Part shown: piece after piece, positions 15,120-50,640 of the stretch | Layout of the letters: the number at the start of each line of letters is the position of its first letter | Numbering within the stretch: position 1 is the first letter of the stretch | The notes under the pieces: model-generated | What the model was told of the DNA's origin: nothing | What the model saw: only the letters and a program-made list of their open reading frames with translations | Database searches by the model: none | NCBI GenBank assembly: GCA_964578535.1 | Contig: CAZODI010000008.1 | Coordinates: 1,815-65,814, forward strand | DNA: 64,000 nucleotides | Source of the DNA: an uncultured Syntrophaceae bacterium | Lineage (GTDB): Bacteria; Desulfobacterota; Syntrophia; Syntrophales; PHBD01 | Direction: 5' to 3' | Made by a program: the position numbers and the translations under genes

Positions 15120-15964
15120 TTTCCGGAACCGGCAACGAGGACGCCGTATTTCCCGGCAAGGGCGTGTCCTCTCTTCGAGTATACAAATTCCAGGAACTGC
15201 GAGGCAGCGACGGGAAGTTTCCCCGTCGTTGCAAAGAGGATCTCCTTGGCGAGCGGGTAGGTTCCATCGGCAAGGGTTTTGCGGCTCGGCCTGACGCCGT
15301 TGAGCGTGACGACATTCAGCGGCAGCCTGGAGGCCAGGACGCCGGCGAGGGCGGCGGTGCCGATCCCCCCGGGCGTCCCGGAAACGGCCTCGTTTGACTC
15401 CGGATCGGTCAGGGCAATCCTCATCCCCTGCCGCTGGTGCGCCGCGGCCACGGCCGCGGCCATGCCCGGCGATATGCTTTTCAGGATTTTCGTTTCCGTG
15501 TCTTCGCGGGGTCTCAGGATGACCCGGACGATCTCCCCGTCGGGCCAGTTCTTCGTCCGTCCTGCATAGATGTCCTCCAGCTCCCGGGTTGAAAGGTTTT
15601 TGAGACGGATGTCCCGGTGGGTCACGACGGCCAGGGGGGTCCTTCCGAAGGGCCTCGATATCCCCCCCTGGGCAACATCCTCCGGCTGAAGAGGAAGGCT
15701 GACGACGGCGATATCGATCGCCCCGGCGAGAAGCGCCTTGATCGCGCCCGAGCTGCCCAGCGGCTTCGTGATTTCAAATGAGACGCCCCTCTTTGTCTTT
15801 CCGTAAGCTTCTATGAGGGGCCTCATCATCTCCAGGGGGGCTCCGGAGCCGTTGATCCGGATCGTCTCCCCCGCCCCGGCATCCTGCACACCCGCACAGA
15901 AAAGAAAAACCGCGAGGAAAAAAGAAAAGGAGAAGGAATGAATACGCCGGCGATGGATGTTCAT
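15116..15964 (-). CDS. PstS-like periplasmic substrate-binding protein
   Basis: Signal peptide, IRINGSG, LGSSGAIKAL..GAIDIA, DGTYPL; stop overlaps start of adjacent kinase (4 nt). Confidence 0.82.
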   Translation of the reverse strand: MNIHRRRIHSFSFSFFLAVFLFCAGVQDAGAGETIRINGSGAPLEMMRPLIEAYGKTKRGVSFEITKPLGSSGAIKALLAGAIDIAVVSLPLQPEDVAQGGISRPFGRTPLAVVTHRDIRLKNLSTRELEDIYAGRTKNWPDGEIVRVILRPREDTETKILKSISPGMAAAVAAAHQRQGMRIALTDPESNEAVSGTPGGIGTAALAGVLASRLPLNVVTLNGVRPSRKTLADGTYPLAKEILFATTGKLPVAASQFLEFVYSKRGHALAGKYGVLVAGSGK

Positions 15965-38308: not shown

Positions 38309-38482
38309 GCGCTCCCCCCGGGAAAAGGTTTCCCCTGATATCTTTTCCGGGGAGATCGGGCAAGATAAACTTATCCGGTCTGCCTTTGGCTGCTCGACGG
38401 GGAATCCCGGAACGGTCCGGGGAATGGGGGGACCGGCCGGCCGGTTGCTGCACAGGGGGAAGGAGCGCACGGCCGGCCGGCT

Positions 38483-38511
38483 TCAGGGGGTCAGGGGGTC
38501 AGGGGGTCAGG
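38483..38511 (+). repeat. Short tandem repeat (TCAGGGGG)x3.6
   Basis: tcaggggg tcaggggg tcaggggg tcagg, just downstream of the 38523 gene stop. Confidence 0.85.
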
Positions 38512-38522
38512 AAGTCGGGCTG

Positions 38523-38792
38523 TCACTCCCGGTGAACGGTCAGCCCGAGGACGACGAAGAGCAGCAGGATGAAGCACACCCCCGTGATCAGGAGCGTCCG
38601 TCCGCTCAGCCACGAGGCCGAATCCGAAAAGATGGTGATGTCCCACAGCCTCCCCCAGTACACGAGAAAGCCGTACTGGACGAGCAGGGCCAGCTTCAGG
38701 CGGCCGAAGATCAGGCCGCCCGTGCTGATCAGCACAACGGCAAGGATGCTGGAAAAGGGAACGGCGACGTCCATCGACCAGATCGATTCCAT
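38523..38792 (-). CDS. Small hypothetical membrane protein (89 aa)
   Basis: RBS GGAGG; MESIWSMDVAVPFSSILAVVLI...; three hydrophobic segments. Confidence 0.6.
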   Translation of the reverse strand: MESIWSMDVAVPFSSILAVVLISTGGLIFGRLKLALLVQYGFLVYWGRLWDITIFSDSASWLSGRTLLITGVCFILLLFVVLGLTVHRE

Positions 38793-38894
38793 GTTCAACC
38801 TCCGAATATGCGAAAGGAGGCCGGCCCAGGAGGACGACCCGCGGGCCGGCGGGAGAATGCAGGATGGAGATTGCCAGAAGCGGAGGGGGGGGAT

Positions 38895-38910
38895 TGTGAC
38901 GGACGTCACA
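38895..38910. promoter_or_regulatory. Crp box (perfect consensus)
   Basis: TGTGA-CGGACG-TCACA, overlapping the crp-like stop codon, 103 nt upstream of the 89-aa gene. Confidence 0.7.
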
Positions 38911-39616
38911 CAAAATCGACTTTATGAAAATTCGGCGTGATGAGGATCCGCCGTTTCTCCAGCACGGAGATCTCCCCGGCCAGCTCCAGCCGCTTGAGGA
39001 TGCGGCTGACCGTCTCCCGGGAAAGGGACGCATAGTCGGCCAGTTCACTGTGGGTCATCCGGAGCCGGATCGCCGTGCCCCGCGCGTCCCTCGATCCGAA
39101 GCGGGACGCCATGTGGCCAAGGACCGCCCGGACCCGGTCTTCCGCCCGCTGCAGGTTCAGGACCTTGAGCATGAACCAGGAATCCCGCAGGCGCTCGCAG
39201 AGAAGGGAGATGATCTGCCGGACGGCGATCGGATTCTTGAGGAACCGGGTCTCAAAATCCGCCCGGCCGAGGAACCCGACCCGCGTATCCTCCAGGGCGA
39301 TCACCCTCGCCGGAGACGTCTTTCCGTCCAGGAGAGCCATTTCGCCGAAGAAATCGCCGCGCTTGTGGACGGCCAGGATCTGTTCCCGCCCCTCCTCGTC
39401 GATTTGCGCGACCTTGACCCGTCCTTCGTAGATCACGTAGAGGCAGCGCGGGGTGTCCTCCTCGAAGAGGATCACATCGTTCCGGCGGTAGTTCCTCTCT
39501 CCCATGACCATCCGCAGTTCGGCCACGTCCCCTCCGGGCAGGCCCCGGAAAATGGGAATTTCCTGGAGGAAAACGTTGGGGCGAATGCTCATGGCCGGCT
39601 GTTTCATCGTTGCCAT
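38906..39616 (-). CDS. Crp/Fnr family transcriptional regulator
   Basis: cNMP-binding barrel (FFGEMALLDG..SPA..A), HTH with LSRETVSR recognition helix; no Fnr-type Cys cluster. Confidence 0.93.
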   Translation of the reverse strand: MATMKQPAMSIRPNVFLQEIPIFRGLPGGDVAELRMVMGERNYRRNDVILFEEDTPRCLYVIYEGRVKVAQIDEEGREQILAVHKRGDFFGEMALLDGKTSPARVIALEDTRVGFLGRADFETRFLKNPIAVRQIISLLCERLRDSWFMLKVLNLQRAEDRVRAVLGHMASRFGSRDARGTAIRLRMTHSELADYASLSRETVSRILKRLELAGEISVLEKRRILITPNFHKVDFV

Positions 39617-39628
39617 TGCTGGAAAACC

Positions 39629-40411
39629 TCACGAACGCCTTTTGGTTGATTTCCGGGAGTTCCAATTGTGCCGCCGGTGATCCTGCTCCAGGCTCTCGAT
39701 CTGCCCGGCCGTCAGGATCCCCTTCCGGACGAAGAAATCGCCGAACCGGGGCTGCAGCAGTTTCTGCCATGCCGTCAGGCGGCGCAGCTGTCCTGCGTCC
39801 ATGTACCCGAGGCGGACGGCACACTCACCGAAACGCTCGCCGGACCGGCGGCGCTTCAGGATGACGAGAATATCTCCGCGGTCCAGCCAGCCCCACCCGC
39901 AGGCGATCACACCGACCGGAGGCCTCTGCCTCTGCTGCCATACCACGGCGTCGACCAGGATCCGGTGGGTAATCATGCCGGCGTAGTAGAGATAACGGCC
40001 GAAGAGGAGCCTCCCCCCGGGAATCGGCCCCGCGTGGACGTAATCCTGCACCGGGTCGCGCTTCCTTGGCGCTCTCTTCCCGAAAGGGGGGTCCTCCCCC
40101 GGCGCGGGGGACGCCGTACGGCGCGGATTTCCTTCGATCAGGCGGAACCGGGAGGGATTCTCCAGGTAGAGGCGGAGCCGTTCAAAAGCGGACTGGACCT
40201 CCTTGAACTGCTCCTCGAGAATGCGGGATTCGACGGCCAGCGAGAGGGCGCGATCCGGGTGGGTCTCCCGCGCCCGTTTCCGATAGGCCGCTTTCAAACC
40301 GGACATCTGCAGGGAATGGTTCAGAAACTGGACAGAGACGTCGGTCTGTTTTCCGAAAAGGACCTGACAGGCTTCGAACAGGTCGGTGGCGTGGATTTCG
40401 TTCTTTTGCAA
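39629..40411 (-). CDS. J-domain protein with C-terminal MshEN-like repeats
   Basis: LKAAYRKRARETHPDRA...F.EVQSAFERL J-domain; four FG/VG-x6-G motifs; TTG start after AGAGGA assumed (ORF extends to 40498). Confidence 0.82.
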   Translation of the reverse strand: MQKNEIHATDLFEACQVLFGKQTDVSVQFLNHSLQMSGLKAAYRKRARETHPDRALSLAVESRILEEQFKEVQSAFERLRLYLENPSRFRLIEGNPRRTASPAPGEDPPFGKRAPRKRDPVQDYVHAGPIPGGRLLFGRYLYYAGMITHRILVDAVVWQQRQRPPVGVIACGWGWLDRGDILVILKRRRSGERFGECAVRLGYMDAGQLRRLTAWQKLLQPRFGDFFVRKGILTAGQIESLEQDHRRHNWNSRKSTKRRS

Positions 40412-40664
40412 GCCGGTTCCTCTTTTGCCTCTGCGCAGATGTGAAAACGGGTCGGCTTCCCGTGGCAGCATTCGCGGAAGGCCTGTTTCCCATGCCATTA
40501 AAAGAAAGCCCGTTTCCTTGTCAACGCAAAAAGCAATCCCGCAGCCGGGATCCCGGGAACCGGCCGGTTCAGGACCGACTGGGGAAGGAAGCCGCCGTTT
40601 GCGGCAGGGAGGGGGTTTGAGGGAGGGTGAGCCGCGAATCCGTCGCGGCCCGGAACGGGGAAAC

Positions 40665-43019
40665 CTACTTGATGCAGACCCTCCGGACTTGCCGGAAGTC
40701 GGTGATGCCCCGCAGGGCTTTCTGGATGCCGTCCTGGAGGAGCGTGGACATCCCCTCGGACATGGCCTTGTCCCGCAGCGTCTCGACGGTCTCGCTCTTC
40801 TGGATGAGCCGTTTGATTGGGTCGCTCGCGATGAGAAGCTCGTGGATGCCCACGCGCCCCTTGTACCCGGACCGGTCGCAGAGGTCGCAGCCCCGGGGCC
40901 GGTACAGCGTCAGGTCGCTCGTGAAGGGAACGGCCAGCTCCTCAAACCGTTCCCTGCCGTAACTCTCCGCCATTTCGTCGAATTCTTTGCGATCGGGATG
41001 ATAGGGCTCGCGGCAGTTTTTGCACAGTGTCCGGACCAGCCTCTGGGCGAGGACGCCAAGAAGGGCATCGGCGAAGTTCAGGGGGTCGATGCCCATGTCG
41101 AGCAGCCGGATGATGGTCTCGGGGGCGCTGTTCGTGTGCAGGGTGCTGAAAACCAGATGGCCCGTCAGGGAGGCCTCCACCCCGGTCTTGGCCGTTTCAA
41201 AATCGCGCATCTCCCCCACCATGATCACATCCGGATCGGCCCGGAGAAAGGCCCGCATGGCCGTGGCAAAATCGAAGCCGATCTTGGGCTGCACCTGAAC
41301 CTGCCGGAGTCCGTACTGGGTGATTTCCACGGGGTCCTCGGCCGTCCAGATCTTCTTCTCCGGCGTGTTGATATGCCGCAGGGCCGCATGGAGGGTCGTC
41401 GTCTTTCCCGAGCCCGTAGGCCCGACCACCAGGATCATGCCGTAGGGCTTCTCGCAGATCTTCAGGAGTTCCGAATAGTTCCTCTCCAACATGCCCATGG
41501 CCTCCAGGGGCAGCGTTTCCCCCTTGGCAAGAAGCCGCATCACGACATCTTCGACCCCTCCCTGGGTGGGCAGCGTCGCCACGCGAAGCTCGATCTCGTC
41601 TCCAGGGGAGCGGCGGAACTTGATCTTGCCGTCCTGGGGAATCCGCTTCACCGTGATGTCCAGGTTGGACATGATCTTGATGCGCGACACGAGAGCGGCC
41701 CGATAGTTGAAGGGAACCGTCTGGTACACCGAGCAGTCGCCGTCGACGCGGAAGCGAACCTCCACGTTCTTCCGGCCGATGTTGGGCTCGACGTGGATGT
41801 CCGACGCCCGCCGGCTGACGGCGTCGTTGATGATCTTATTGACGAGCAGCATGATCGCGCTGTCCGACTCCGTGACGGCTTCTTCCCCGTCCTCACTTTC
41901 CTCCTCATCCACACCGTCCAGCCGGCCGATGATGTCCGAAATCGACGTTTCATCCCCATGGACCTGATAGAAATAGTTGATGAACCGGGAGATGTCCTCC
42001 GGAAGGGCCACGTCATAGCGGATGTCTTTTGTCTTCAGGAGGTTTTCAATCATGTCCCGCTTGATGATGTTGTCCGGGTCGCTCACCAGGATGTGGACGG
42101 TTCCGTCGGTCTTCTCGATGGGCACCCAGAGCTCCCGGAGCAGGTATTCCTTGTTGAGCCTGCTCAGGAGATCCGCGGGGATGGGGAACCGGTCGCTGAA
42201 CTGGACAACGCTGCAGCGGAAATATTCTTCCAGCGACGCTCCGAGATCTTCCTTCGAGATGCCGTGTTTCCGCATCAGGAAACTTTCCACGGTCTCCTTC
42301 TCTTCCCGGGCTTCTTCGCAGGCACGATCGAGCTCGTCTTCCTTCAGGAATCCTTTCCGGATGAGGGAGTCGAAGCGCGTCTTTCTCCGGCGGGCATAGC
42401 GTGCGTGGTTGGAAAGCGCGATGGCAAGGACTTCGGAAATCTCCTGGAGCAGCACGGGCTCCTCTTCGATGAACCGGCCGTCCCGCCCCGACTTGTTGAT
42501 CACCTCGATGACGCCGATGACCTCGCCCTCGTGAACGATCGGCGCGGCCATGACCTGCTTCAGGCGGACATTCGACCGGGCGTCCCGGTCGACCGCCAGT
42601 TCCAGTCCCTTGCAGCGCTTTTTCATCTCGGCCGGATCGTGGACGTCGGCGATGTTGATCAGGAAGCCCGTTTCGGCCACGTACCCGGGAATCGTCCGGT
42701 TGTTGACGGCCATCCTCTGTTCCCGGAACAGGCGCCCGGCCTTGGTGGTCGTGAAGATTTCCCTTCGCTGGCGGTCGACGGCATAGATGTTCACTGCTTC
42801 CACGCGGAAAAGATCCACGATCCGCCTGCTGCAGTCGGTGAATATCTGCGCCACGCTCTGGGAGGCGTAGATTTCGTTCGTGATGTCCTGCAGCTCGTTC
42901 TGGAGGCGGAGGATCTCTTCCAGTTCGTTGATTTCATGGAAGGGAACGTCTTTGCCGACGGGATGGGATCCCTGGGACGGCAGCGGATGGAGAGACTCCG
43001 CAGCAACGGACGATGTCAT
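40665..43019 (-). CDS. GAF domain-containing PilB/GspE family secretion ATPase
   Basis: N-terminal GAF (VIGVIEVINK..F..EE); RASDIHVEP, GPTGSGKTT, TAEDPVE, DPDVIMVGEMRD, TGHLVFSTLHTN, CKNC...CDLC. Confidence 0.93.
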   Translation of the reverse strand: MTSSVAAESLHPLPSQGSHPVGKDVPFHEINELEEILRLQNELQDITNEIYASQSVAQIFTDCSRRIVDLFRVEAVNIYAVDRQRREIFTTTKAGRLFREQRMAVNNRTIPGYVAETGFLINIADVHDPAEMKKRCKGLELAVDRDARSNVRLKQVMAAPIVHEGEVIGVIEVINKSGRDGRFIEEEPVLLQEISEVLAIALSNHARYARRRKTRFDSLIRKGFLKEDELDRACEEAREEKETVESFLMRKHGISKEDLGASLEEYFRCSVVQFSDRFPIPADLLSRLNKEYLLRELWVPIEKTDGTVHILVSDPDNIIKRDMIENLLKTKDIRYDVALPEDISRFINYFYQVHGDETSISDIIGRLDGVDEEESEDGEEAVTESDSAIMLLVNKIINDAVSRRASDIHVEPNIGRKNVEVRFRVDGDCSVYQTVPFNYRAALVSRIKIMSNLDITVKRIPQDGKIKFRRSPGDEIELRVATLPTQGGVEDVVMRLLAKGETLPLEAMGMLERNYSELLKICEKPYGMILVVGPTGSGKTTTLHAALRHINTPEKKIWTAEDPVEITQYGLRQVQVQPKIGFDFATAMRAFLRADPDVIMVGEMRDFETAKTGVEASLTGHLVFSTLHTNSAPETIIRLLDMGIDPLNFADALLGVLAQRLVRTLCKNCREPYHPDRKEFDEMAESYGRERFEELAVPFTSDLTLYRPRGCDLCDRSGYKGRVGIHELLIASDPIKRLIQKSETVETLRDKAMSEGMSTLLQDGIQKALRGITDFRQVRRVCIK

Positions 43020-44407
43020 GGAAGCCGGACCTTATCCATACCGACAGGCTCCACCATGGCCTGGACGACTCCCGGCGGCTCCTGGATAAACACGATCATG
43101 AACGGGGTCTCGCCTCCCGGGGGGACCGCGTTGTTCGCCTGCGGACCGGACCGGGCGGCCGAGAGAGCCAGGTGGAGATCCGGCTCTCCAAGGGTCTCCA
43201 GCTGATCGGCGGTCAACCCGCTCCCGCAGGAAACCATCCGCGCCGCCACGAGCACACCCCGGGAATCATAAAGCTCGCCGCGGATCCGGATCCCCGAGAC
43301 GCCTTCATGCCCCCTGTTGAACGCCATGCCCTCGACAACCCTGATTTCCCGGCCGAGAGCCACGTTTCTGACAAACCGGTGCCGCAGATTGACAATCCCC
43401 ACCTGCTCCGCCACGGGATTCCGGTCCGGCCTTCCAACCTCCAGGTATTGGCCGGCGAAGGGGACATTCACGGACAGCCAGCGGACCAGCCCCTGCCCGT
43501 CGGCGGGCCTGGCCAGGAAAAAGCCGAGGGCGGAGAGGGCCAGGGCAAGGCACAGGAGCAGGCCGATCAGAACCGGCGCGCGCCGTGACGTTCCACGGCC
43601 GGACGAAAGGACGGAACCGCTCCCCTGCTTCACCTCTTCCTTCCCGATATCCTCCGCCGTCTGCAGGGACAGACCGTTCTCGGCGGCCGCCTCTTCGATG
43701 GTTTTCCTGTCGATCCGCAGGGTCCGGTCCATTTCCGGTACGTCCCTGCGCACTTCCGGCGCCTCGGCCGACCGGCCGGCGTCCTGGAATTCCACGAAAG
43801 CGGGCGGGTCCTGCTTCGCCGGGGGCTCCGGCGGCTCCTCCGGCACGCCTTCAGCGGCCGCATCTTCCACATCCGGAGCCGGCTCCTGCACCGCCTCCAC
43901 CCCGGGCATGACGGGTGCCGCCGCCGTCTCCATTTCCAGCTTCAGGACCGGCGGCTCCTCCCGCACGACTTCAGCGGCCTCCTCATCCAGATCCGGGGCC
44001 GGCTCCTGCACCGCCTCCGCCCCGGGCACGACGGGCGCCGCCGCCGTCTCCATGTCCAGCTTCGGGACCGGCGGCTCCTCCCGTCTGCCTTCCACGGCGA
44101 ACTCTGCCGGATCCGATATGGGCTCCTGCAGCACCTCTTCCTGCAAAAGGGATAAGGGGCCCGCATCGTCCGTTTCCGGTTTCTGCCGGGGCACATCCTT
44201 TTTCTTAACCGGAACGGTGATGTCGAATTTCCCGAAAATCGCCGGATACGGCGTCACGGGCGTGACGGGATCGACGGGATCGACGGGATCGGACGGCTGT
44301 ATGTCCTCCATCGGCAGCGACGGGCCTGCGGCTGAAAATGTGGATAAAAAAGCCTCCAGTTCCTGCTTTTCACGGACCAGATCGAATGTCTCGTTCGGGA
44401 TGCTCAT
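43016..44407 (-). CDS. Membrane protein with acidic Pro-rich linker and C-terminal DUF3426-like domain
   Basis: Low-complexity N-terminal half, TM (VLIGLLLCLALALSALGFFL), C-terminal I.G.L.D..G...A....CG...VPPG...PFMIVF. Confidence 0.7.
   Translation of the reverse strand: MSIPNETFDLVREKQELEAFLSTFSAAGPSLPMEDIQPSDPVDPVDPVTPVTPYPAIFGKFDITVPVKKKDVPRQKPETDDAGPLSLLQEEVLQEPISDPAEFAVEGRREEPPVPKLDMETAAAPVVPGAEAVQEPAPDLDEEAAEVVREEPPVLKLEMETAAAPVMPGVEAVQEPAPDVEDAAAEGVPEEPPEPPAKQDPPAFVEFQDAGRSAEAPEVRRDVPEMDRTLRIDRKTIEEAAAENGLSLQTAEDIGKEEVKQGSGSVLSSGRGTSRRAPVLIGLLLCLALALSALGFFLARPADGQGLVRWLSVNVPFAGQYLEVGRPDRNPVAEQVGIVNLRHRFVRNVALGREIRVVEGMAFNRGHEGVSGIRIRGELYDSRGVLVAARMVSCGSGLTADQLETLGEPDLHLALSAARSGPQANNAVPPGGETPFMIVFIQEPPGVVQAMVEPVGMDKVRLP
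43850..44083 (+). repeat. Intragenic 120-bp direct repeat (two copies, 40 aa)
   Basis: Lines 43861-43980 and 43981-44083 are near-identical; protein EEPPV(P/L)KL(D/E)METAAAPV(V/M)PG(A/V)EAVQEPAPD. Confidence 0.9.
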
Positions 44408-44486
44408 CTTTGCCTTTCACTCCATGGAATCCGGTGTACCGCCGGTCCCGTGCACGTCGGAACGAATCCGGCACCCGGCCCGCCGT

Positions 44487-44645
44487 TCAGGCTTTCATAG
44501 CCTTAAGACCCTGCACGGCCGCATCCGGAACGGTGATCCGGATGACGTCGCTGCATTTCCTGCAGACCCGGATGATGACGGATTCCCTGATCTCGTCGGG
44601 TTCGATAACGATTCTTTCCCCGCACTCCTCACAGAAGACAATCAT
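44487..44645 (-). CDS. Small zinc-ribbon protein (52 aa), not in ORF track
   Basis: MIVFCEECGERIVIEPDEIRESVIIRVCRKCSDVIRITVPDAAVQGLKAMKA; CxxC-x19-CxxC, MJ0042-type. Confidence 0.75.
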   Translation of the reverse strand: MIVFCEECGERIVIEPDEIRESVIIRVCRKCSDVIRITVPDAAVQGLKAMKA

Positions 44646-44726
44646 GTCTCGGCAGCTCTCTTCGTCAGCATTTCAAGGTTCGCCCACCGGCGCGTCCGGC
44701 CCTTTTCTTTCCAGGCCCCGCTCCCG

Positions 44727-45884
44727 TCAAAGGACCGTCCCTGACCCCGGGTGCGAGGCTCCTTTGCCCCCCAGCCCCAGCTCCGCCCTCAGCGCCTCGA
44801 ACTCGCTGCGGATCATCTTCCGGACCTCTCTCCGGATCTCTTCCAGTGCGCAGGCAAAGGCATCGTGCGGCTCCATGGCCTTCACGGCCTCGCAGAAATC
44901 CGAACCGGTCTCTTCTTCCCTCTCGGGGTGTTGCTCCGCTTCGCTTTCTTCGGCCGTCAGCGTCACAGCAGGGGAGGCCGGGAGTCCGGCCGCGGGCGCA
45001 GGCTCGACATCCTCTTCCCCCGACGCCGGAACCGCCTCGGTCAAGGGCTCCCGGCTGTCCCCGGCGACAGGGACCCGATCCTCCCCGGCGGTCGCCCCCG
45101 TGCAGGAGGAAAGGTCGATCTTCTCCACCCAGTTCCTGTACTTCCCGATATCGACCACCAGGACGGCCCGCTTTGCCTCCTCCGCCATGGCCTTCGAAAG
45201 GAGAACCCGTTCCAGGTCGTCATATACGGAGAAAAGCAGCTTCACCGACTCGGTGTGGGAATCCCCCTGTTTGACCTGGATATAGCGCTCCAGGAAGCGA
45301 AGGATCCGGAGGAAGCCGAGAACGGTGCGCTCGTGGCGGTACAGCTCCTGCAGTCCGTTCAGCTCCCTGTCCAGCCTGCCCAGGATGGCATCGCTGATTT
45401 CCCATTCCAGCGACAGAATGATGCTTTTCAGCGTCTTGACCGGCGAGAACAGGGCCGGCGTGACCGTTTCGATATCGCCGAAAATCTGCTCGAAACGTCT
45501 GTCTCCGTCCTCGACTGCGCAGGGGTCCGCCGATCCGGGAGCCGATTCGATTTCCTCGAGACAGGGATGGGCTGCATCGGATTCCGGAACCGGATCCGGC
45601 GTTTCTTCCTCAAGAAGGATGTGATAGCGTCTGCCCGGATCGGGCTCCGGGGATTCGGCATCGCCGCTCACGTGTTCGTTCATCATGTCCGGAACTGCTG
45701 CCCTATCCCCTTCCCCACCGGCCTCCAGTGGAGTCTCAGCGCTGATTCCGTCCAGAATGGCCCTGGGATCGGCGGGATCCGGTCCCGCATTACGGCCGCG
45801 TTCCACGGAATCAAGGCCGATTCCGAACAGGACATCGAGGCGGTTTTCCACTTCCCGAACGAATGAAGATTCTTTCATCACCAA
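44727..45884 (-). CDS. Hypothetical acidic protein adjacent to mglA (possible scaffold)
   Basis: Overlaps the mglA stop; N-terminal helix EVENRLDVLFG, central helical domain SIILSLEWEISD, C-terminal helix IRSEFEALRAELG. Confidence 0.7.
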   Translation of the reverse strand: MVMKESSFVREVENRLDVLFGIGLDSVERGRNAGPDPADPRAILDGISAETPLEAGGEGDRAAVPDMMNEHVSGDAESPEPDPGRRYHILLEEETPDPVPESDAAHPCLEEIESAPGSADPCAVEDGDRRFEQIFGDIETVTPALFSPVKTLKSIILSLEWEISDAILGRLDRELNGLQELYRHERTVLGFLRILRFLERYIQVKQGDSHTESVKLLFSVYDDLERVLLSKAMAEEAKRAVLVVDIGKYRNWVEKIDLSSCTGATAGEDRVPVAGDSREPLTEAVPASGEEDVEPAPAAGLPASPAVTLTAEESEAEQHPEREEETGSDFCEAVKAMEPHDAFACALEEIRREVRKMIRSEFEALRAELGLGGKGASHPGSGTVL

Positions 45885-46495
45885 TCCCCGTTCTCCAGTT
45901 CCTTTTCCAGGGAGGCCATGGTCAGCGAGATGATCTTCTTCAGGGTTACAACGACGTTGTCTCCCTCCACGGCACTGGCTTCGAATGACGGCGCTTTCAA
46001 TACGCCGTTGAGATCCCGGTCCAGGGTCTCGACATCCAGCACTTCGATCCCCTGCTTTGCCAGATCCCGCTTGTTGTACTGGATGACCAGCGGCATCTCG
46101 AAAATGTTCTTGTTGTAGAGGGCGAGGTTCTCCTGGAGATTCATCAGGGACGCCACGTTCTTGTTTCTTCGCTCCGCCTCTGAATCGGCGACGAACACGA
46201 CGCCGTCCACCCCCTTCAGGACGAGCCGCCTCGTCGAGTTGTATTTCACCTGGCCCGGCACGGTGTACAATTGGATTTTCACGTCGTACCCGGCGATCTT
46301 GCCGATGTCGAAAGGAAAGAAATCAAAGAAGAGGGTTCGGTCGCCCTGTGTCTTGACCGTCACCATTTCGGAATTGATCTGCTCGCGGCACCGGCTGTAG
46401 ATGTATTCCAGGTTCGTCGTCTTGCCGCATCTTCCGGGACCGTAATAGACAATCTTGGCCTGGATGACCCGATCCTTCAGGTTGATGAATGCCAA
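45878..46495 (-). CDS. mglA: MglA Ras-like small GTPase
   Basis: KIVYYGPGRCGKTTN, DRTLFFDF, LYTVPGQ, QYNKRD, EASA. Confidence 0.95.
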   Translation of the reverse strand: MAFINLKDRVIQAKIVYYGPGRCGKTTNLEYIYSRCREQINSEMVTVKTQGDRTLFFDFFPFDIGKIAGYDVKIQLYTVPGQVKYNSTRRLVLKGVDGVVFVADSEAERRNKNVASLMNLQENLALYNKNIFEMPLVIQYNKRDLAKQGIEVLDVETLDRDLNGVLKAPSFEASAVEGDNVVVTLKKIISLTMASLEKELENGDW

Positions 46496-46568
46496 CGTCC
46501 GCTTCCTCCCTGCCCGACGCCTTCCGCGCTTTGCCTGCCCGGCCTGGTCCGGCCGGGTGATCCTGTTC

Positions 46569-46958
46569 CTAATCCAGAACCCGGGACAGCTCCTGGATGA
46601 CCTGGGCCATCTTCAGCCTCAGAAATCCAAGGGTTACCTCGTTGTCAAAGATGTTGACCAGCAGGAATTCTTCGTTCACCCGGCTGAAATAGATGCTCTC
46701 TTTCTGCCCCTTGTGAAAGAGGAGCGAGAATTCTTCCTCCCCGACGATCCTGGCCATGCTGCACATCGCTCCGAAATTGGCCGCAGCGAGTGCGGCCAGC
46801 GAATACATGTCCCGCGTCACCTGCCCGTTGTCGACCGTCACGATGATGTTGCCGGCCATATCGATCAGCATGGTGTTCTGGACACCCGACCCGATCAGGT
46901 TCTTCTGCAGGGTGTCCTGGATCCTGTCGAGGTGCTGACTGCCGAGGATCAGGCTCAT
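46569..46958 (-). CDS. mglB: MglB roadblock/LC7 GTPase-activating protein
   Basis: LIDMAGNII, LAALAAANFGA...ARIVGEEEF..LFH.G..ESIY, FDNEVTLGFLRL; directly upstream of mglA. Confidence 0.9.
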   Translation of the reverse strand: MSLILGSQHLDRIQDTLQKNLIGSGVQNTMLIDMAGNIIVTVDNGQVTRDMYSLAALAAANFGAMCSMARIVGEEEFSLLFHKGQKESIYFSRVNEEFLLVNIFDNEVTLGFLRLKMAQVIQELSRVLD

Positions 46959-47083
46959 GGCGACATCTCTCCCGGGCGGCGGTGGCCCGCGTGCATGTGT
47001 TTCTCCATCATCCTGTCAACTCCCGGTGATGCGCTGCCGTTCCGGCGGCGTCCGTGCCGCGGCCTGCCGCGGAAAGGCGCGCA

Positions 47084-47284
47084 TCAGTGGCTGATGGTGT
47101 TCAGGTTGCTCCGATCGAGGATCAGGTTGGCGGTTTCCTTCAGCTTCTTCACCATCTCCTCGGTATCCTTCATCTGGGCCGCCATGGACTGGGAAATTCC
47201 CGTCCTGGTCGCCAGCTCCATTCGTCCCTTGAGACCCGCCTGCTCCATGACGATCTCAAAGATCCGGACCATTTTTTCTCCCAT
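47084..47284 (-). CDS. Small conserved hypothetical protein B (66 aa)
   Basis: RBS AAGGAAGGGG; MGEKMVRIFEIVMEQAGLKGRMELATRTGIS...; paralog of 48691-48888. Confidence 0.75.
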   Translation of the reverse strand: MGEKMVRIFEIVMEQAGLKGRMELATRTGISQSMAAQMKDTEEMVKKLKETANLILDRSNLNTISH

Positions 47285-47304
47285 CGCCCCTTCCTTTCGC
47301 CTCT

Positions 47305-47676
47305 CTAGGAAACGACCGCATCTTCGAATGCGTTGATGATGCTGGGCAGAACGATATTCAGAAGCAGCCCAAGCTTGACCTGTTTCTTGTTGACGACGAT
47401 CGCCCACTGGTAATCGCCGAAGGGAATGGCCAGGATGCCCATGTTCCCGGCGACGTCGATGTAATAGTACTGGCCCAGCTCCACCGGATAGGTCTTCAGG
47501 CCCTCCCGGATGGACGCAGTGATTTCATTGAGCAGCGTGGCTCCGGCCGTATTGGACCGCTCCGTCGCCACCAGCACCTGCCCGTCCTCCGTAGAGACGA
47601 TGCTCGACGCAAGCAGCCCGTCTCCCAGATCCTTCTTCAAGCCTTCCAGGCAACCGTTCAGTTTCTGTATGTTCAT
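47305..47676 (-). CDS. Roadblock/longin-like protein
   Basis: RBS GGAGG; DLGDGLLASSIVSTEDG...LGLLLN pattern; homologous to C-terminus of 47773-48675. Confidence 0.75.
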   Translation of the reverse strand: MNIQKLNGCLEGLKKDLGDGLLASSIVSTEDGQVLVATERSNTAGATLLNEITASIREGLKTYPVELGQYYYIDVAGNMGILAIPFGDYQWAIVVNKKQVKLGLLLNIVLPSIINAFEDAVVS

Positions 47677-47772
47677 TACGCCTCCCCTTTAGAATGTTGG
47701 ATTCTCCTGCTTTACCATTCCCCGATTCCCGTCTTTCCGGGAATACAGTGCCGTCCCCTGCCCGCGGATCCT

Positions 47773-48675
47773 TCATCCGGACGGATCGCCCCGAGGCGGG
47801 ACCGCTCCATCACCGCCCGCTTCAAACGTCCTGGCAGCCTTGGGAACGATGGCGTTCAGGACCAGCCCCAGAGAGCATTTTGCGCTGTCGAACAGCATAC
47901 CCAGCTGATGCCCGTCGAAAAGAAGAACCATGAGCGTCAGCCCGTCCCTGAGGTTCATGATATAATGGCTGCCGAGCCCCTTCTGTTCCGGATCCCGTCC
48001 GAAGGCGCTCCGGAGGGATTCCGTCAACTGGATGAACAGCTGGGCCGTTCCCAGGGTTTTTCGGTCATGATGGGAAGCCAGGACCGTCCCGCCGTGAAGG
48101 TCCGCGATGCTTGCCGACAGGAGCGCATCCCCCATGTCCTCGCGAACGACCCGAAGGCACTGCTTGAACCGGTCTTCCCCCCTTCCGGGGGCTTCCATTT
48201 CCGCATCCGCGTCGGCTTCCGCTTCCTCCGCCGCCTCCGCACCCTGCCCGCCGGCCGCCTCGTCGCACCGCCGCGAAGACTCCATCAGGATCGACATGAG
48301 GCTCTTCTCGATCTTCCTGGTAAAGCCGCCTGCATCGACAATCCTCCGGATGTTGAGCCGGACGTTCTCCCAGGAGACCATCTCCATTGCGGCGTCTTCA
48401 GCCTCCAGGCCGTCGCAGGCGGCGTCGTAGAGGGCTCCCTGAACGAAGCAGAAGCGTCCCTGGCGGTCGGCGTCCCGGTAGACTTCCAGGATGCATGTCT
48501 GCTGGTCCATGGCGATGACCTGGAGAAAACTCGCCACCGGAAGGCCGCAGATCGGCCAGCGCTGCAATTCCTCTTTTGAGCCCTGTTTTTCCACGTGCGA
48601 CTGGGTCTCCGAAGAACCGTCATTGTGCACGATCAACCTGAGTTCTCTCCTGGCGGCGCCTTCCACTGGCCTCAT
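47773..48675 (-). CDS. DUF4388 domain fused to roadblock-like domain
   Basis: LPVASFLQVIAMDQQTCILEV...GRFCFVQGALYDA...AAMEMVSW; C-terminal DMGDALLSASIADLHGG...LGLVLN. Confidence 0.8.
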   Translation of the reverse strand: MRPVEGAARRELRLIVHNDGSSETQSHVEKQGSKEELQRWPICGLPVASFLQVIAMDQQTCILEVYRDADRQGRFCFVQGALYDAACDGLEAEDAAMEMVSWENVRLNIRRIVDAGGFTRKIEKSLMSILMESSRRCDEAAGGQGAEAAEEAEADADAEMEAPGRGEDRFKQCLRVVREDMGDALLSASIADLHGGTVLASHHDRKTLGTAQLFIQLTESLRSAFGRDPEQKGLGSHYIMNLRDGLTLMVLLFDGHQLGMLFDSAKCSLGLVLNAIVPKAARTFEAGGDGAVPPRGDPSG

Positions 48676-48690
48676 CTCCTGACCGAATCG

Positions 48691-48888
48691 TTACGGCGCG
48701 GTCTTGCCGCAAAGCGTTTCGTAGATATCGCTTGCCGCATGCTTGAACCGGTGAACGAGTTCCTCCGTGTCTTCCACGTCGACCGCCTGGCTCATGGATA
48801 TCCCCGTTCTCACGGCAAGTTCGAGCCGTCCCTTCAGCCCGGTTTTCTCAGTAACGAGTTCATAGATGCGCACCAGCTTTTCCCCCAC
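48691..48888 (-). CDS. Small conserved hypothetical protein A (65 aa)
   Basis: GTG start after GGAGGAG; MGEKLVRIYELVTEKTGLKGRLELAVRTGIS...GKTAP. Confidence 0.78.
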   Translation of the reverse strand: MGEKLVRIYELVTEKTGLKGRLELAVRTGISMSQAVDVEDTEELVHRFKHAASDIYETLCGKTAP

Positions 48889-48959
48889 CGTCTCCTCCGC
48901 ATCCGGTCCGGGGTATTCCGCTTCCGGAATTCACCGGCCATTCTGGTTGGTGTATCCGG

Positions 48960-49001
48960 ATTGTACGGATATTCACGATCTTGTCTGTGATGAAAATCAC
49001 A
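48960..49001 (-). promoter_or_regulatory. Crp box plus -10 element: class II Crp-type promoter of the mgl cluster
   Basis: TGTGA-TGAAAA-TCACA at 48986-49001; minus-strand TACAAT at 48965-48960; box centre about -41. Confidence 0.75.
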
Positions 49002-49341
49002 TTCGTATATTATTTCTATCGTCATTCTTCCGATGCCTCCGCCAATGACGCGGCAGGGACGCGGGAATGGATGGGCCGGCGTGAGAAAAAGGCACGGCGG
49101 GCCGGAGCGAGGAATGGGCAAAAGCGCGGATCGAGGGAACCTCTTGGGAAAGACATGAACAGGCTGGGAAAACCGGATCGCGATGATCCGTCAGGGCGCC
49201 AGGAAGGCCTTCGGCATGGCCGTCACGCGGGACGTGGCATCTGCACGCGCGGTGGTCTCCGTACCGGCCGTGGCCGGTCCGTTGAGTCGTACGGACCGGG
49301 CAGCGGCCGGCCGCATCGCGCATGCTATCATGCGGCTTCGT

Positions 49342-50640
49342 TCAGTAGAAGCGCAGGTTGTCGATCCAGAGGGATCCCCTTTTGTCCGCACGCTCGTCGA
49401 GGTCCGAGGGACAGACGCCAATCCGGATCGCCTCCACCCGCCCCAGGTCGAGGACCTGCCGGCCATGCCGGTAACCGGTGGCCTCGATGCCCTTGACCAC
49501 GATGATGCTCAGCTGATCGAAGGGGACCCGGACGGTCCGCCATTGCTCGCCCACGGGGTAGCGGGCAGACCACCGGTCCCGCATCCTCGGATTTTCGCGG
49601 TCCGAGATGTCGATGTTCGCGTAGGCGCGGGAAGGCTGGGAGGACCGGACCATGAACTCGATCCCTTTGAAGAGAGACAGGTCTCGCTTCCGGACGTTCG
49701 AAAGGGAGGGACATCCGGGCCCCTCGTACGGGTGCGTGAAATTGTAGTCCAGGCGGAGCGATTTCTTCGACCCGCCGGCCCCGCCGGTCATGTCGAGAAC
49801 CGTTTTGCCCACCCCTTTGCGCCACATTCCCATGTGCCACGAATAGTCCACGGATCCCGGCGCATACGATTCGAAGTCCTCCTCCAGGGCCTTCGCCTCG
49901 CGGCTTGCCTCGGCCCGGAAGAGCGGGACCAGCCCCTGGACGGCAACAACCGCCTGGCCCGTGGCCACATTGATGGCCCTCAGATGGACCTCCCAGGCGT
50001 CGCGCATCTCCGTCATCGTCCCCGTTACGATCAGGTCGGCCACCAGGAGCCTCGAGCGGGCATGGGCCGGGATCTCCGTGAGCCCGGAGGAGGCCAGTTT
50101 CATCTCTTCCATGACGGCCTGGATCTTCTGCCTCTCCACGACGACGAAGGACCCCGCTTCGACAAAGGCCGTACCCAGCTTTTCCGCCAGGATCGAGCCT
50201 GCCTCCCGGATGTTTCCCCTCAGGACCTCGATTTCGGCGACGGCGACTTTCTTCTTCGGAACGTCGATGACAAGGCCTGCCCCCGTTTTCAGGGCGGCTG
50301 CTTTTTCAAGGACAACCACAACGGTGTTTCCCGCAACCCTCCGGATCGTGCCCTTCTCTTCACCGATCACAATGGGCATGCCCTCCAGGAGAAGGGTCTT
50401 CCGGGCGATATCCTGGACGATGCGCTCGACGGGATCCGCGGAGGGTTTCCATTCCGGGGCCCGGCAGGCGAGGGTCACTTCCTTTCCGTCCACCGACTGC
50501 ACGGTTGCCGGAAGGGTCTGCACGGCCCCGAGGGCCTGTCCCTGAGGGGACGCGCCACACTCGGACACAGGCACGGTGAGGAGGAGAGCAGCGGCAAGGA
50601 GATGGAGTGCAGCCATCGGCAGGGTTCGGGTTCGCTTCAT
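49342..50640 (-). CDS. Secreted protein: CsgG/FlgO-like domain plus CIA30/CBM11-like domain
   Basis: Signal peptide; VAVAEI...FVVVERQKIQAVMEE...ADLIVTG; C-terminal SLRLDY...GIEFMV...WRTVRVPFDQL...LDLGRVEAIRI. Confidence 0.65.
   Translation of the reverse strand: MKRTRTLPMAALHLLAAALLLTVPVSECGASPQGQALGAVQTLPATVQSVDGKEVTLACRAPEWKPSADPVERIVQDIARKTLLLEGMPIVIGEEKGTIRRVAGNTVVVVLEKAAALKTGAGLVIDVPKKKVAVAEIEVLRGNIREAGSILAEKLGTAFVEAGSFVVVERQKIQAVMEEMKLASSGLTEIPAHARSRLLVADLIVTGTMTEMRDAWEVHLRAINVATGQAVVAVQGLVPLFRAEASREAKALEEDFESYAPGSVDYSWHMGMWRKGVGKTVLDMTGGAGGSKKSLRLDYNFTHPYEGPGCPSLSNVRKRDLSLFKGIEFMVRSSQPSRAYANIDISDRENPRMRDRWSARYPVGEQWRTVRVPFDQLSIIVVKGIEATGYRHGRQVLDLGRVEAIRIGVCPSDLDERADKRGSLWIDNLRFY

Follow-up and report, generated by a model that had tools for sequence, protein, structure and literature searches.

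The perfect TGTGA-N6-TCACA box at the head of an MglA-type gene cluster in an uncultured anaerobic-digester syntroph of the Syntrophales (site 1; Table 1) appears, on well-supported comparative evidence, to be a real and conserved operator of a known kind that serves ordinary promoter control. It is likely the operator for the Crp/Fnr-family regulator encoded by the adjacent crp gene (hereafter Crp), with probable class II-type activation. The original prediction had held that the cluster is activated by its own Crp and that this gives a feedback loop; the operator and the probable class II-type activation by the adjacent Crp stand, and the feedback loop does not. Positions are those of the window, the whole 64-kb stretch of DNA that was analysed. 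It corresponds to C8:1815-65814 of a 3.65 Mb draft genome (G000; 62% GC) whose DNA occurs in digester, sludge and mixed-culture metagenomes.

Table 1 Positions of sites 1 and 2, their promoter elements and the associated genes in the window
Feature	Position	Strand	Details
A/T-rich tract directly upstream of box	49002..49024	-	GATAGAAATAATATACGAA; genome 62% GC
Site 1	48986..49001	.	perfect CRP-type palindrome TGTGATGAAAATCACA; minus strand TGTGATTTTCATCACA
-35-like hexamer CAGACA	48982..48987	-	4/6 consensus matches; 16-nt spacer; 2-nt box overlap
-10 hexamer TACAAT	48960..48965	-	20 nt after box; same hexamer chosen by promoter-prediction tool
Predicted transcription start	48952..48954	-	inferred from -10
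Two GGAATTC-like repeats, 5' leader	48912..48936	-	GGTGAATTCC ... GGAATACC (second repeat also quoted as GCGGAATACC)
Site 1 transcription unit	40665..48888	-	ORF list and Pfam; 8 kb; order kept in G001-G005
Gene 1: 65-aa protein	48691-48888	-	GTG start; GGAGGAG ribosome-binding site upstream
Gene 2: DUF4388 protein		-	C-terminal part resembles next (123-aa) protein
Gene 3: 123-aa protein		-	similar to C-terminus of DUF4388 protein; no Pfam match
Gene 4: paralog of 65-aa protein		-	
Gene 5: Robl_LC7 protein, MglB-like		-	Pfam
Gene 6: MglA-like GTPase		-	
Gene 7: 385-aa protein		-	
Gene 8: DUF3426 protein		-	Pfam
Gene 9: GAF-MshEN-T2SSE ATPase (PilB-like)		-	Pfam; stop at 40665
Terminator-like hairpin (7-bp) and T5	40535..40552	-	after ATPase gene
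dnaJ-crp sigma-70-type promoter	40497..40524	-	TTGACA (40524-40519)-16-TTTAAT (40502-40497)
J-domain gene (dnaJ; MshEN c-di-GMP modules)	39629-40411	-	first gene of dnaJ-crp unit
crp: Crp/Fnr-family regulator, 236 aa	38906..39616	-	helix SRETVSRILK; starts 12 nt after J-domain gene
Site 2	38895..38910	.	perfect box TGTGACGGACGTCACA; overlaps crp stop codon
Candidate extended -10 TGgCAATCT	38868..38876	-	21 nt after site 2; TTCTGG(N6) block conserved; start predicted from it about 38861
89-aa small membrane-protein gene	38523..38792	-	conserved site 2 target; no family match

A conserved palindrome upstream of the cluster

Site 1 is centred at 48993.5, 105.5 nt upstream of the first start codon of the cluster, and the minus-strand TACAAT that had been paired with the box at the outset does begin 28.5 nt from this centre. 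A genome-wide motif scan (3,646,496 bp) returned exactly two perfect TGTGA-N6-TCACA boxes, the two already picked out by eye, both inside the window and 10 kb apart. Since 1.6 perfect boxes are expected genome-wide by chance (mononucleotide model), the count itself is not enriched. Within the window, 100 dinucleotide-preserving shuffles gave a mean of 0.03 box matches and none reached two, so the early estimate of about 0.02 chance matches per 64 kb was about right; the control pattern, the box read backwards, had no perfect match in 13 of the 15 genomes searched. Unlike their number, the placement and conservation of the boxes are non-random. Both lie outside gene bodies and flank the crp-containing cluster, site 2 touching only the crp stop codon, and site 1 has what marks a CRP-type operator, a non-coding palindrome conserved beyond its surroundings. 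Boxes with one mismatch number 25 in the genome and about 20 of them look coding, which leaves the motif by itself with little power to predict operators; the coding call comes from a stop-to-stop ORF classifier that over-calls coding and misfiled both site 2 and the box at C14:38359.

The cluster occurs in the congeners G001-G005, with cluster proteins 55-100% identical, and both boxes and the whole gene order are kept in all five. The ten specified positions of box 1 are invariant in the six congeners. Four independent congeneric lineages, compared pairwise, are 91% identical over box 1 together with two flanking bases. Over the 120 nt upstream of the box identity is 30%, while the spacer has 47%, the leader 55% and the -10 element 72%; the -10 reads TACAAT, TAATAT, TAATAT and TAAAGT at 20, 20, 19 and 20 nt after the box. 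On this alignment, the box together with a TAnnnT -10 element makes up a phylogenetic footprint. Box and Crp ortholog share one pattern of presence and loss across genomes: a sixth congener, G006 (99% complete), is without the cluster, without a Crp ortholog and without any perfect box. In G040, from another family, the cluster and a 53%-identical Crp ortholog lie on separate contigs, and a perfect box precedes the first gene of the cluster by 103.5 nt, with GATATT 21 nt after the box. Two genomes from other genera of the same family (G007 and G008) have the cluster without the box, under the promoters TTGACA-17-TATATT and TTGACT-17-TATTAT. The pairing of box-less clusters with consensus promoters and of boxed clusters with sub-consensus ones is what activator dependence would predict. 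The expectation that the box would be conserved upstream of orthologous clusters is thus borne out in G001-G005 and G040 and fails in G007 and G008. Of 80 further public loci that have MglA homologs, only those of G002 and G040, both already known, showed a perfect box upstream. The clusters of G007 (L028, about 15700-15740) and G008 (L029, about 1470-1500) have leaders of about 290 nt and near-consensus sigma-70 promoters; one more copy of the 123-aa protein and one more pair of 65-aa genes stand at the head of these clusters.

Promoter geometry and RNA ends

Class II activation by CRP and FNR involves a site centred near -41.5 at a fixed distance from the -10 element. Placing TACAAT at -12 to -7 puts the predicted start at 48953 and the centre of the box at -40.5, or at -41.5 if transcription starts one base further on. 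The distance from box centre to -10 (28.5 nt) is therefore 1 bp off the canonical 29.5 nt that corresponds to a -41.5 centre, and ranges from 27.5 to 29.5 nt in the orthologs. With this predicted start, the class II spacing claimed originally is supported as a class II-like arrangement. The -35 element had been called poor: it is indeed sub-consensus, but not that poor, since CAGACA matches the consensus at four of six positions. It borders directly on the box and is separated from the -10 by 16 nt. CAGACA is kept in five of the six congeners (G001, G002, G004 and G005 among them) and reads CAGAAA in G003. The tract directly upstream of the box would suit an alpha-CTD seat at a class II promoter; G001 and G002 are likewise A/T-rich there, G003 less strongly.

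RNA data were available as assembled contigs of public metatranscriptomes, of low depth and without strand information. Contigs over the first gene of the cluster end at 48954 (X25), 48967 (X16), 48926 (X27) and 48906 (X31); the first two ends, both from true metatranscriptomes, are close to or compatible with the predicted start at 48953, the X16 end lying 14 nt upstream of it. Both X16 and X30 lack coverage from 48968 to 49067, a gap that contains the box, and both cover 49068-49323, the tail of a CsgG-like gene. This gap fits a promoter within it, and the RNA is supportive rather than decisive: a 172-nt contig (48828-48999) from X29, a run of uncertain type that may or may not be RNA, crosses the -10 and most of the box. 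Two metatranscriptomes have contigs over the CsgG-like gene that stop at about 49068-49072, just past an imperfect hairpin rich in GC (about 49076-49106), where the upstream CsgG-like transcript probably has its 3' end.

The leader and the genes downstream of site 1

The GGAATTC-like repeats of the leader are kept in all congeners and in G040 (L030, about 15290-15310), and a second regulator might bind there. An Rfam search over 38400-49400 gave no match at E <= 1, and RNAalifold on the leader recovered only a short self-pairing of GAATTC that lacks covariation. Being GGA-rich, the leader was also considered as a target of CsrA, a reading rejected because the genome has no CsrA gene.

The genes downstream of site 1 on the minus strand are all co-oriented, and the GC content of the cluster matches that of the genome. 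That the box heads an mgl cluster, as first stated, is supported in the sense of an MglA-type cluster: mgl here denotes the MglA Ras-like GTPase and not the E. coli mglBAC galactoside transporter. A literature search found no account of transcriptional control of clusters of MglA-type GTPase, roadblock and PilB-like ATPase genes, and none of Crp control of MglA clusters in the Syntrophales.

The adjacent Crp and its recognition helix

Crp has the two-domain make-up of the Crp/Fnr family, a beta-barrel of the cNMP-binding type at the N-terminus and a winged HTH of the Crp type at the C-terminus (PF00027, E = 8e-26; PF13545, 1e-12; PF00325, 3e-9). Its open reading frame contains SLSRETVSRILKRL, with the R-E-x-x-x-R recognition helix in SLSRETVSRILK, and the RETVSR reported in the original prediction is present in the translation. 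The genome encodes three Crp/Fnr proteins and RETVSR, with Arg at the position of CRP Arg180, is found only in the local Crp; the other two paralogs (G000:C34:4681-5412 and C56:9541-10239) read PETLSR and PEALSR, with Pro at that position. Among delta-proteobacterial HcpR proteins, those with Arg180 are paired with sites of the TGTGA type, and those with Ser or Pro with sites of the TTGA type (Rodionov et al., PMC545781). The local Crp has the equivalents of Arg180, Glu181 and Arg185 that characterise the TGTGA-reading subtype, and R-E-T-x-[ST]-R is present in 12 of 12 orthologs. These residues make the adjacent Crp the most likely reader of site 1. The two Pro-180 paralogs resemble the TTGA-reading HcpR type of Desulfuromonas and Desulfotalea.

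The signal to which Crp responds is less clear-cut. Its phosphate-binding cassette reads GEMALLDGKTSPARV, with GKTSPAR against GQPRSAD in Clr and EGERSAS in Thermus CRP. The motif x-P-A occupies the region of CRP Arg82-Ser83 in 12 of 12 orthologs, as Ser-Pro in the local Crp, which thus lacks the R-[ST]-A cassette of cAMP-dependent CRPs; the global regulon with many operators that goes with such CRPs is absent as well, the genome holding two perfect boxes and one further conserved operator. Nine class III cyclase homologs imply that cyclic nucleotides are made. Canonical binding of cAMP by the local Crp is nevertheless doubtful, and so is either of the nucleotides suggested earlier for binding tests, cAMP or cGMP, as effector, since x-Pro replaces Arg82-Ser83 in all 12 orthologs. 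The adjoining MshEN modules bring c-di-GMP to mind as effector, which is speculative. The beta4-beta5 loop of Crp, IDEEGRE, is acidic and resembles AR3, which reads KDEEGKE in E. coli CRP. The best matches among solved structures are 7PZA (E = 2e-22) and 4EV0 (2e-21), Clr of Sinorhizobium meliloti and CRP of Thermus thermophilus, and PDB matches include CRP, FNR and Clr.

Site 2 and the ancestral module

The second perfect box is centred 110.5 nt upstream of the next gene and is invariant in G001-G005 while its spacers and flanks drift. Comparison of sites 1 and 2 revealed no similarity outside the ten specified bases. In G007 and G008, TGgTATAAA and TGgTGTAAA lie 19 nt after the box and are followed by the ortholog of the small membrane protein; site 2 has only an extended -10 there, with no recognisable -35. 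Eight more genomes of the order encode Crp orthologs (39-53% identity), each of which carries R-E-T-x-[ST]-R, and a search for DUF4388 gave no match in five of these eight (G015, G021, G026, G028 and G036). In G007, G008, G021 and G028, which represent four further genera and have 3-5 perfect boxes per genome, the crp stop is followed at 14-150 nt by a perfect box, and G040 has a one-mismatch box just 3' of its crp ortholog. Since site 2 accompanies crp across genera, the ancestral module would consist of crp, the box and the small membrane-protein gene. The GTPase cluster, to judge from its distribution, appears to have joined the regulon in the genus of the window, along with physical linkage, and in the lineage of G040.

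Throughout this genus the TGA of the TGTGA arm of site 2 is the crp stop codon (38906-38910 in the window), as it is in G028 (L044, 2165-2180); other genera have the box 20-150 nt downstream of the crp stop. A dimer bound at site 2 would sit on the last codons of crp and might act as a roadblock. A sigma-54 promoter at site 2 (TGGCA...TGCA) was rejected, the spacing of GG and GC being 3 nt too long and the motif not conserved in G001. Between the small membrane-protein gene and a DapB_N/DAP_DH_C oxidoreductase gene stands a tandem octamer, TCAGGGGG x3.4, at 38483-38511; tblastn finds only fragments of the oxidoreductase gene in G001 and G002.

Further boxes and the size of the regulon

A third conserved Crp-type box lies between an rfbG-like gene (CDP-glucose dehydratase-like) and an rfbF-like gene (glucose-1-phosphate cytidylyltransferase). 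It is perfect in G001 (C46:96169), G002 (C84:1326) and G003 (C12:618577) and has one mismatch in G000 (CGTGACGTTCATCACA, G000:C14:38359-38374, outside the window). A search for a -10 at class II distance found no convincing candidate, and the box upstream of the rfbF-like gene is a probable third operator. Together, the sites indicate a local regulator with a regulon of two to three promoters rather than a global one. A wider regulon acting through one-mismatch sites was rejected, given how many of these look coding; one of them, C86:3230, is the rplL terminator hairpin. An apparent third perfect site in G005 (C4:195988; G000 counterpart C6:69696) lies inside a small secreted-protein gene, where it encodes V-K-S-V-T, and is not regulatory. 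The sequence TGTGAAAAAATTCAAA at G000:C14:62058-62073, also outside the window, is identical in G000, G001 and G003 and immediately precedes the ribosome-binding site of a gene for an acyl-CoA dehydrogenase; it could represent a weak operator or else a conserved element of the leader.

Alternative readings of the cluster and its box

If the genes from 48888 to 38906, which are all co-oriented, formed one operon read from site 1, Crp would amplify its own synthesis in a positive feedback loop. We consider this improbable. The block TTTTGCGTTGACAAGGAAACGGGCTTTCTTTTAATGGCATGG between the ATPase stop (40665) and the J-domain gene is invariant in six of six congeners and carries the TTGACA-16-TTTAAT promoter just past the hairpin, and the genome-wide one-mismatch scan found no box near this promoter. 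The hairpin with its T5 stands out in G000, G004 and G005 and is less distinct in G001-G003; read-through is possible, and an X26 contig (run of uncertain type) spans 40503-40652. X25 contigs, by contrast, tile 39035-40477 at a depth of 5-8 and end about 13 nt short of the predicted dnaJ-crp start at about 40490, with the 3' end of the ATPase gene uncovered and a depth of 2.2 at the cluster head. In G007, G008, G040 and others, moreover, the crp ortholog is not linked to the cluster. Taken together, the separate promoter, the hairpin and the X25 coverage imply that crp is expressed on its own, a loop arising only through terminator read-through. The autoregulatory loop first proposed, in which Crp would be transcribed from a promoter that it activates, is thus not supported: the dnaJ-crp unit has its own invariant promoter behind the hairpin and RNA coverage is discontinuous. 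The longest-ORF ATG of the J-domain gene, at 40498, falls inside the -10 TTTAAT and the G001 reading frame starts at the codon equivalent to 40411, where the true start is probably a TTG, giving a leader of about 79 nt.

Crp might also bind the box as a repressor, occluding CAGACA-16-TACAAT until an effector releases it. CAGACA/TACAAT scores 9/12 with the promoter-prediction tool and is promoter-like without an activator, so it could give Crp-independent activity; the box overlaps the -35-like hexamer by 2 nt; and there is precedent in the Crp-family protein Clp, whose DNA binding is inhibited by its ligand. The position of the box weighs against repression: it is centred at about -41 and its distance to the -10 is conserved, a combination that is the signature of class II activation. 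So does the comparison between genera, in which the box-less orthologous clusters have a consensus -35 and the boxed ones do not, and so do the site 2 promoters of G007 and G008, whose extended -10 without a -35 is an arrangement that needs an activator. We therefore regard repression as quite unlikely. That the palindrome is no Crp site at all, being read by another factor, a product of chance or the terminal repeat of a mobile 10-kb island, is very improbable. The genome-wide box count does match the chance expectation and the two boxes do bracket the cluster, but they are alike only in their ten specified bases, which stay invariant while spacers and flanks drift; site 2 accompanies crp where the cluster lies elsewhere or is absent; and the N6 spacing and TGTGA arms fit the RE..R helix. 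Mobile-element ends at the two boxes were rejected, there being no shared sequence outside the ten bases and a cluster GC content that matches the genome's.

A proposed model for activation by Crp

In the preferred reading, activation at site 1 by the adjacent Crp, a Crp dimer with its effector would bind the palindrome through its CRP-type helix (Arg-Glu-x-x-x-Arg). Held about 40.5-41.5 bp upstream of the start, beside a sub-consensus -35 and a good -10, it would recruit RNA polymerase in the class II manner. We infer both the binding and the positive sign of the effect, which would turn on the 8-kb unit that begins with the 65-aa gene, takes in the roadblock proteins and the MglA-like GTPase, and ends with the GAF-MshEN-PilB-like ATPase. 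The same Crp would serve the evolutionarily older operator at site 2, driving the small membrane-protein gene. Crp itself would come from the separate, constitutive-looking dnaJ-crp promoter, so that the circuit would run from regulator to targets with no obligatory positive loop.

The conservation data suggest a small, lineage-specific regulon, well footprinted and built on a known kind of regulatory site, rather than a new kind of mechanism. The analysis provides testable regulatory wiring for an uncultured syntroph (a local Crp, two or three operators and an MglA-type cluster) and defines a Syntrophales-wide module of crp, box and small membrane-protein gene. As the same cluster stands under a consensus promoter or under a Crp box depending on the genus, it offers a natural experiment that could help to study how activator dependence evolves.

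Comparison with known systems

The closest parallel in operator and helix is E. coli CRP, which at class II promoters such as galP1 (centred at -41.5) uses the same palindrome, here with the preferred TGTGAT and ATCACA arms, and whose helix SRETVGRILK is nearly identical to SRETVSRILK of the local Crp. As at the class II sites of E. coli, the box borders on the -35 region or overlaps it, at about 41 bp from the predicted start on the upstream side, and IDEEGRE stands in the place of AR3. The differences are also clear: overall identity is about 25-30% and no NCBIfam equivalog cut-off is reached, Arg82-Ser83 is replaced by Ser-Pro, the operators number two to three as against hundreds, and the distance from box to -10 is 1 bp shorter. 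Clr (7PZA) and Thermus CRP (4EV0) have the same two-domain architecture as the local Crp; both keep the R-S-A that it lacks.

Xanthomonas Clp and Burkholderia Bcam1349 are Crp-family regulators that respond to c-di-GMP rather than cAMP, bind CRP-like boxes and control surface and motility functions. The setting of the local Crp is similar in that MshEN-type c-di-GMP modules occur in the neighbouring genes, and no sequence- or residue-level sign of c-di-GMP binding was obtained for Crp itself. It is conceivable, if unlikely, that the Syntrophales Crp group, which has lost the cAMP contacts and in the genus of the window is co-transcribed with an MshEN J-domain protein, is a receptor for c-di-GMP or another messenger and couples its targets to that signal. 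If true, a Ras-like GTPase polarity module, a PilB-like motor and surface-polysaccharide genes would be coupled transcriptionally to that messenger, through a minimal dedicated regulon recruited independently in two lineages.

Among delta-proteobacterial regulators, HcpR of Desulfovibrio is a CRP/FNR protein predicted by comparative genomics to read TTGTGA-N6-TCACAA (PMC545781). Like the local Crp, it is a non-cAMP Crp/Fnr regulator with Arg180 and a CRP-identical box, it adjoins its targets, and the prediction rests on the same kind of evidence. The two differ in what they would control: HcpR is tied to hcp-frdX and the metabolism of sulfate and nitrogen oxides, whereas the Crp described here is associated with a GTPase, roadblock and ATPase cluster and a small membrane protein.
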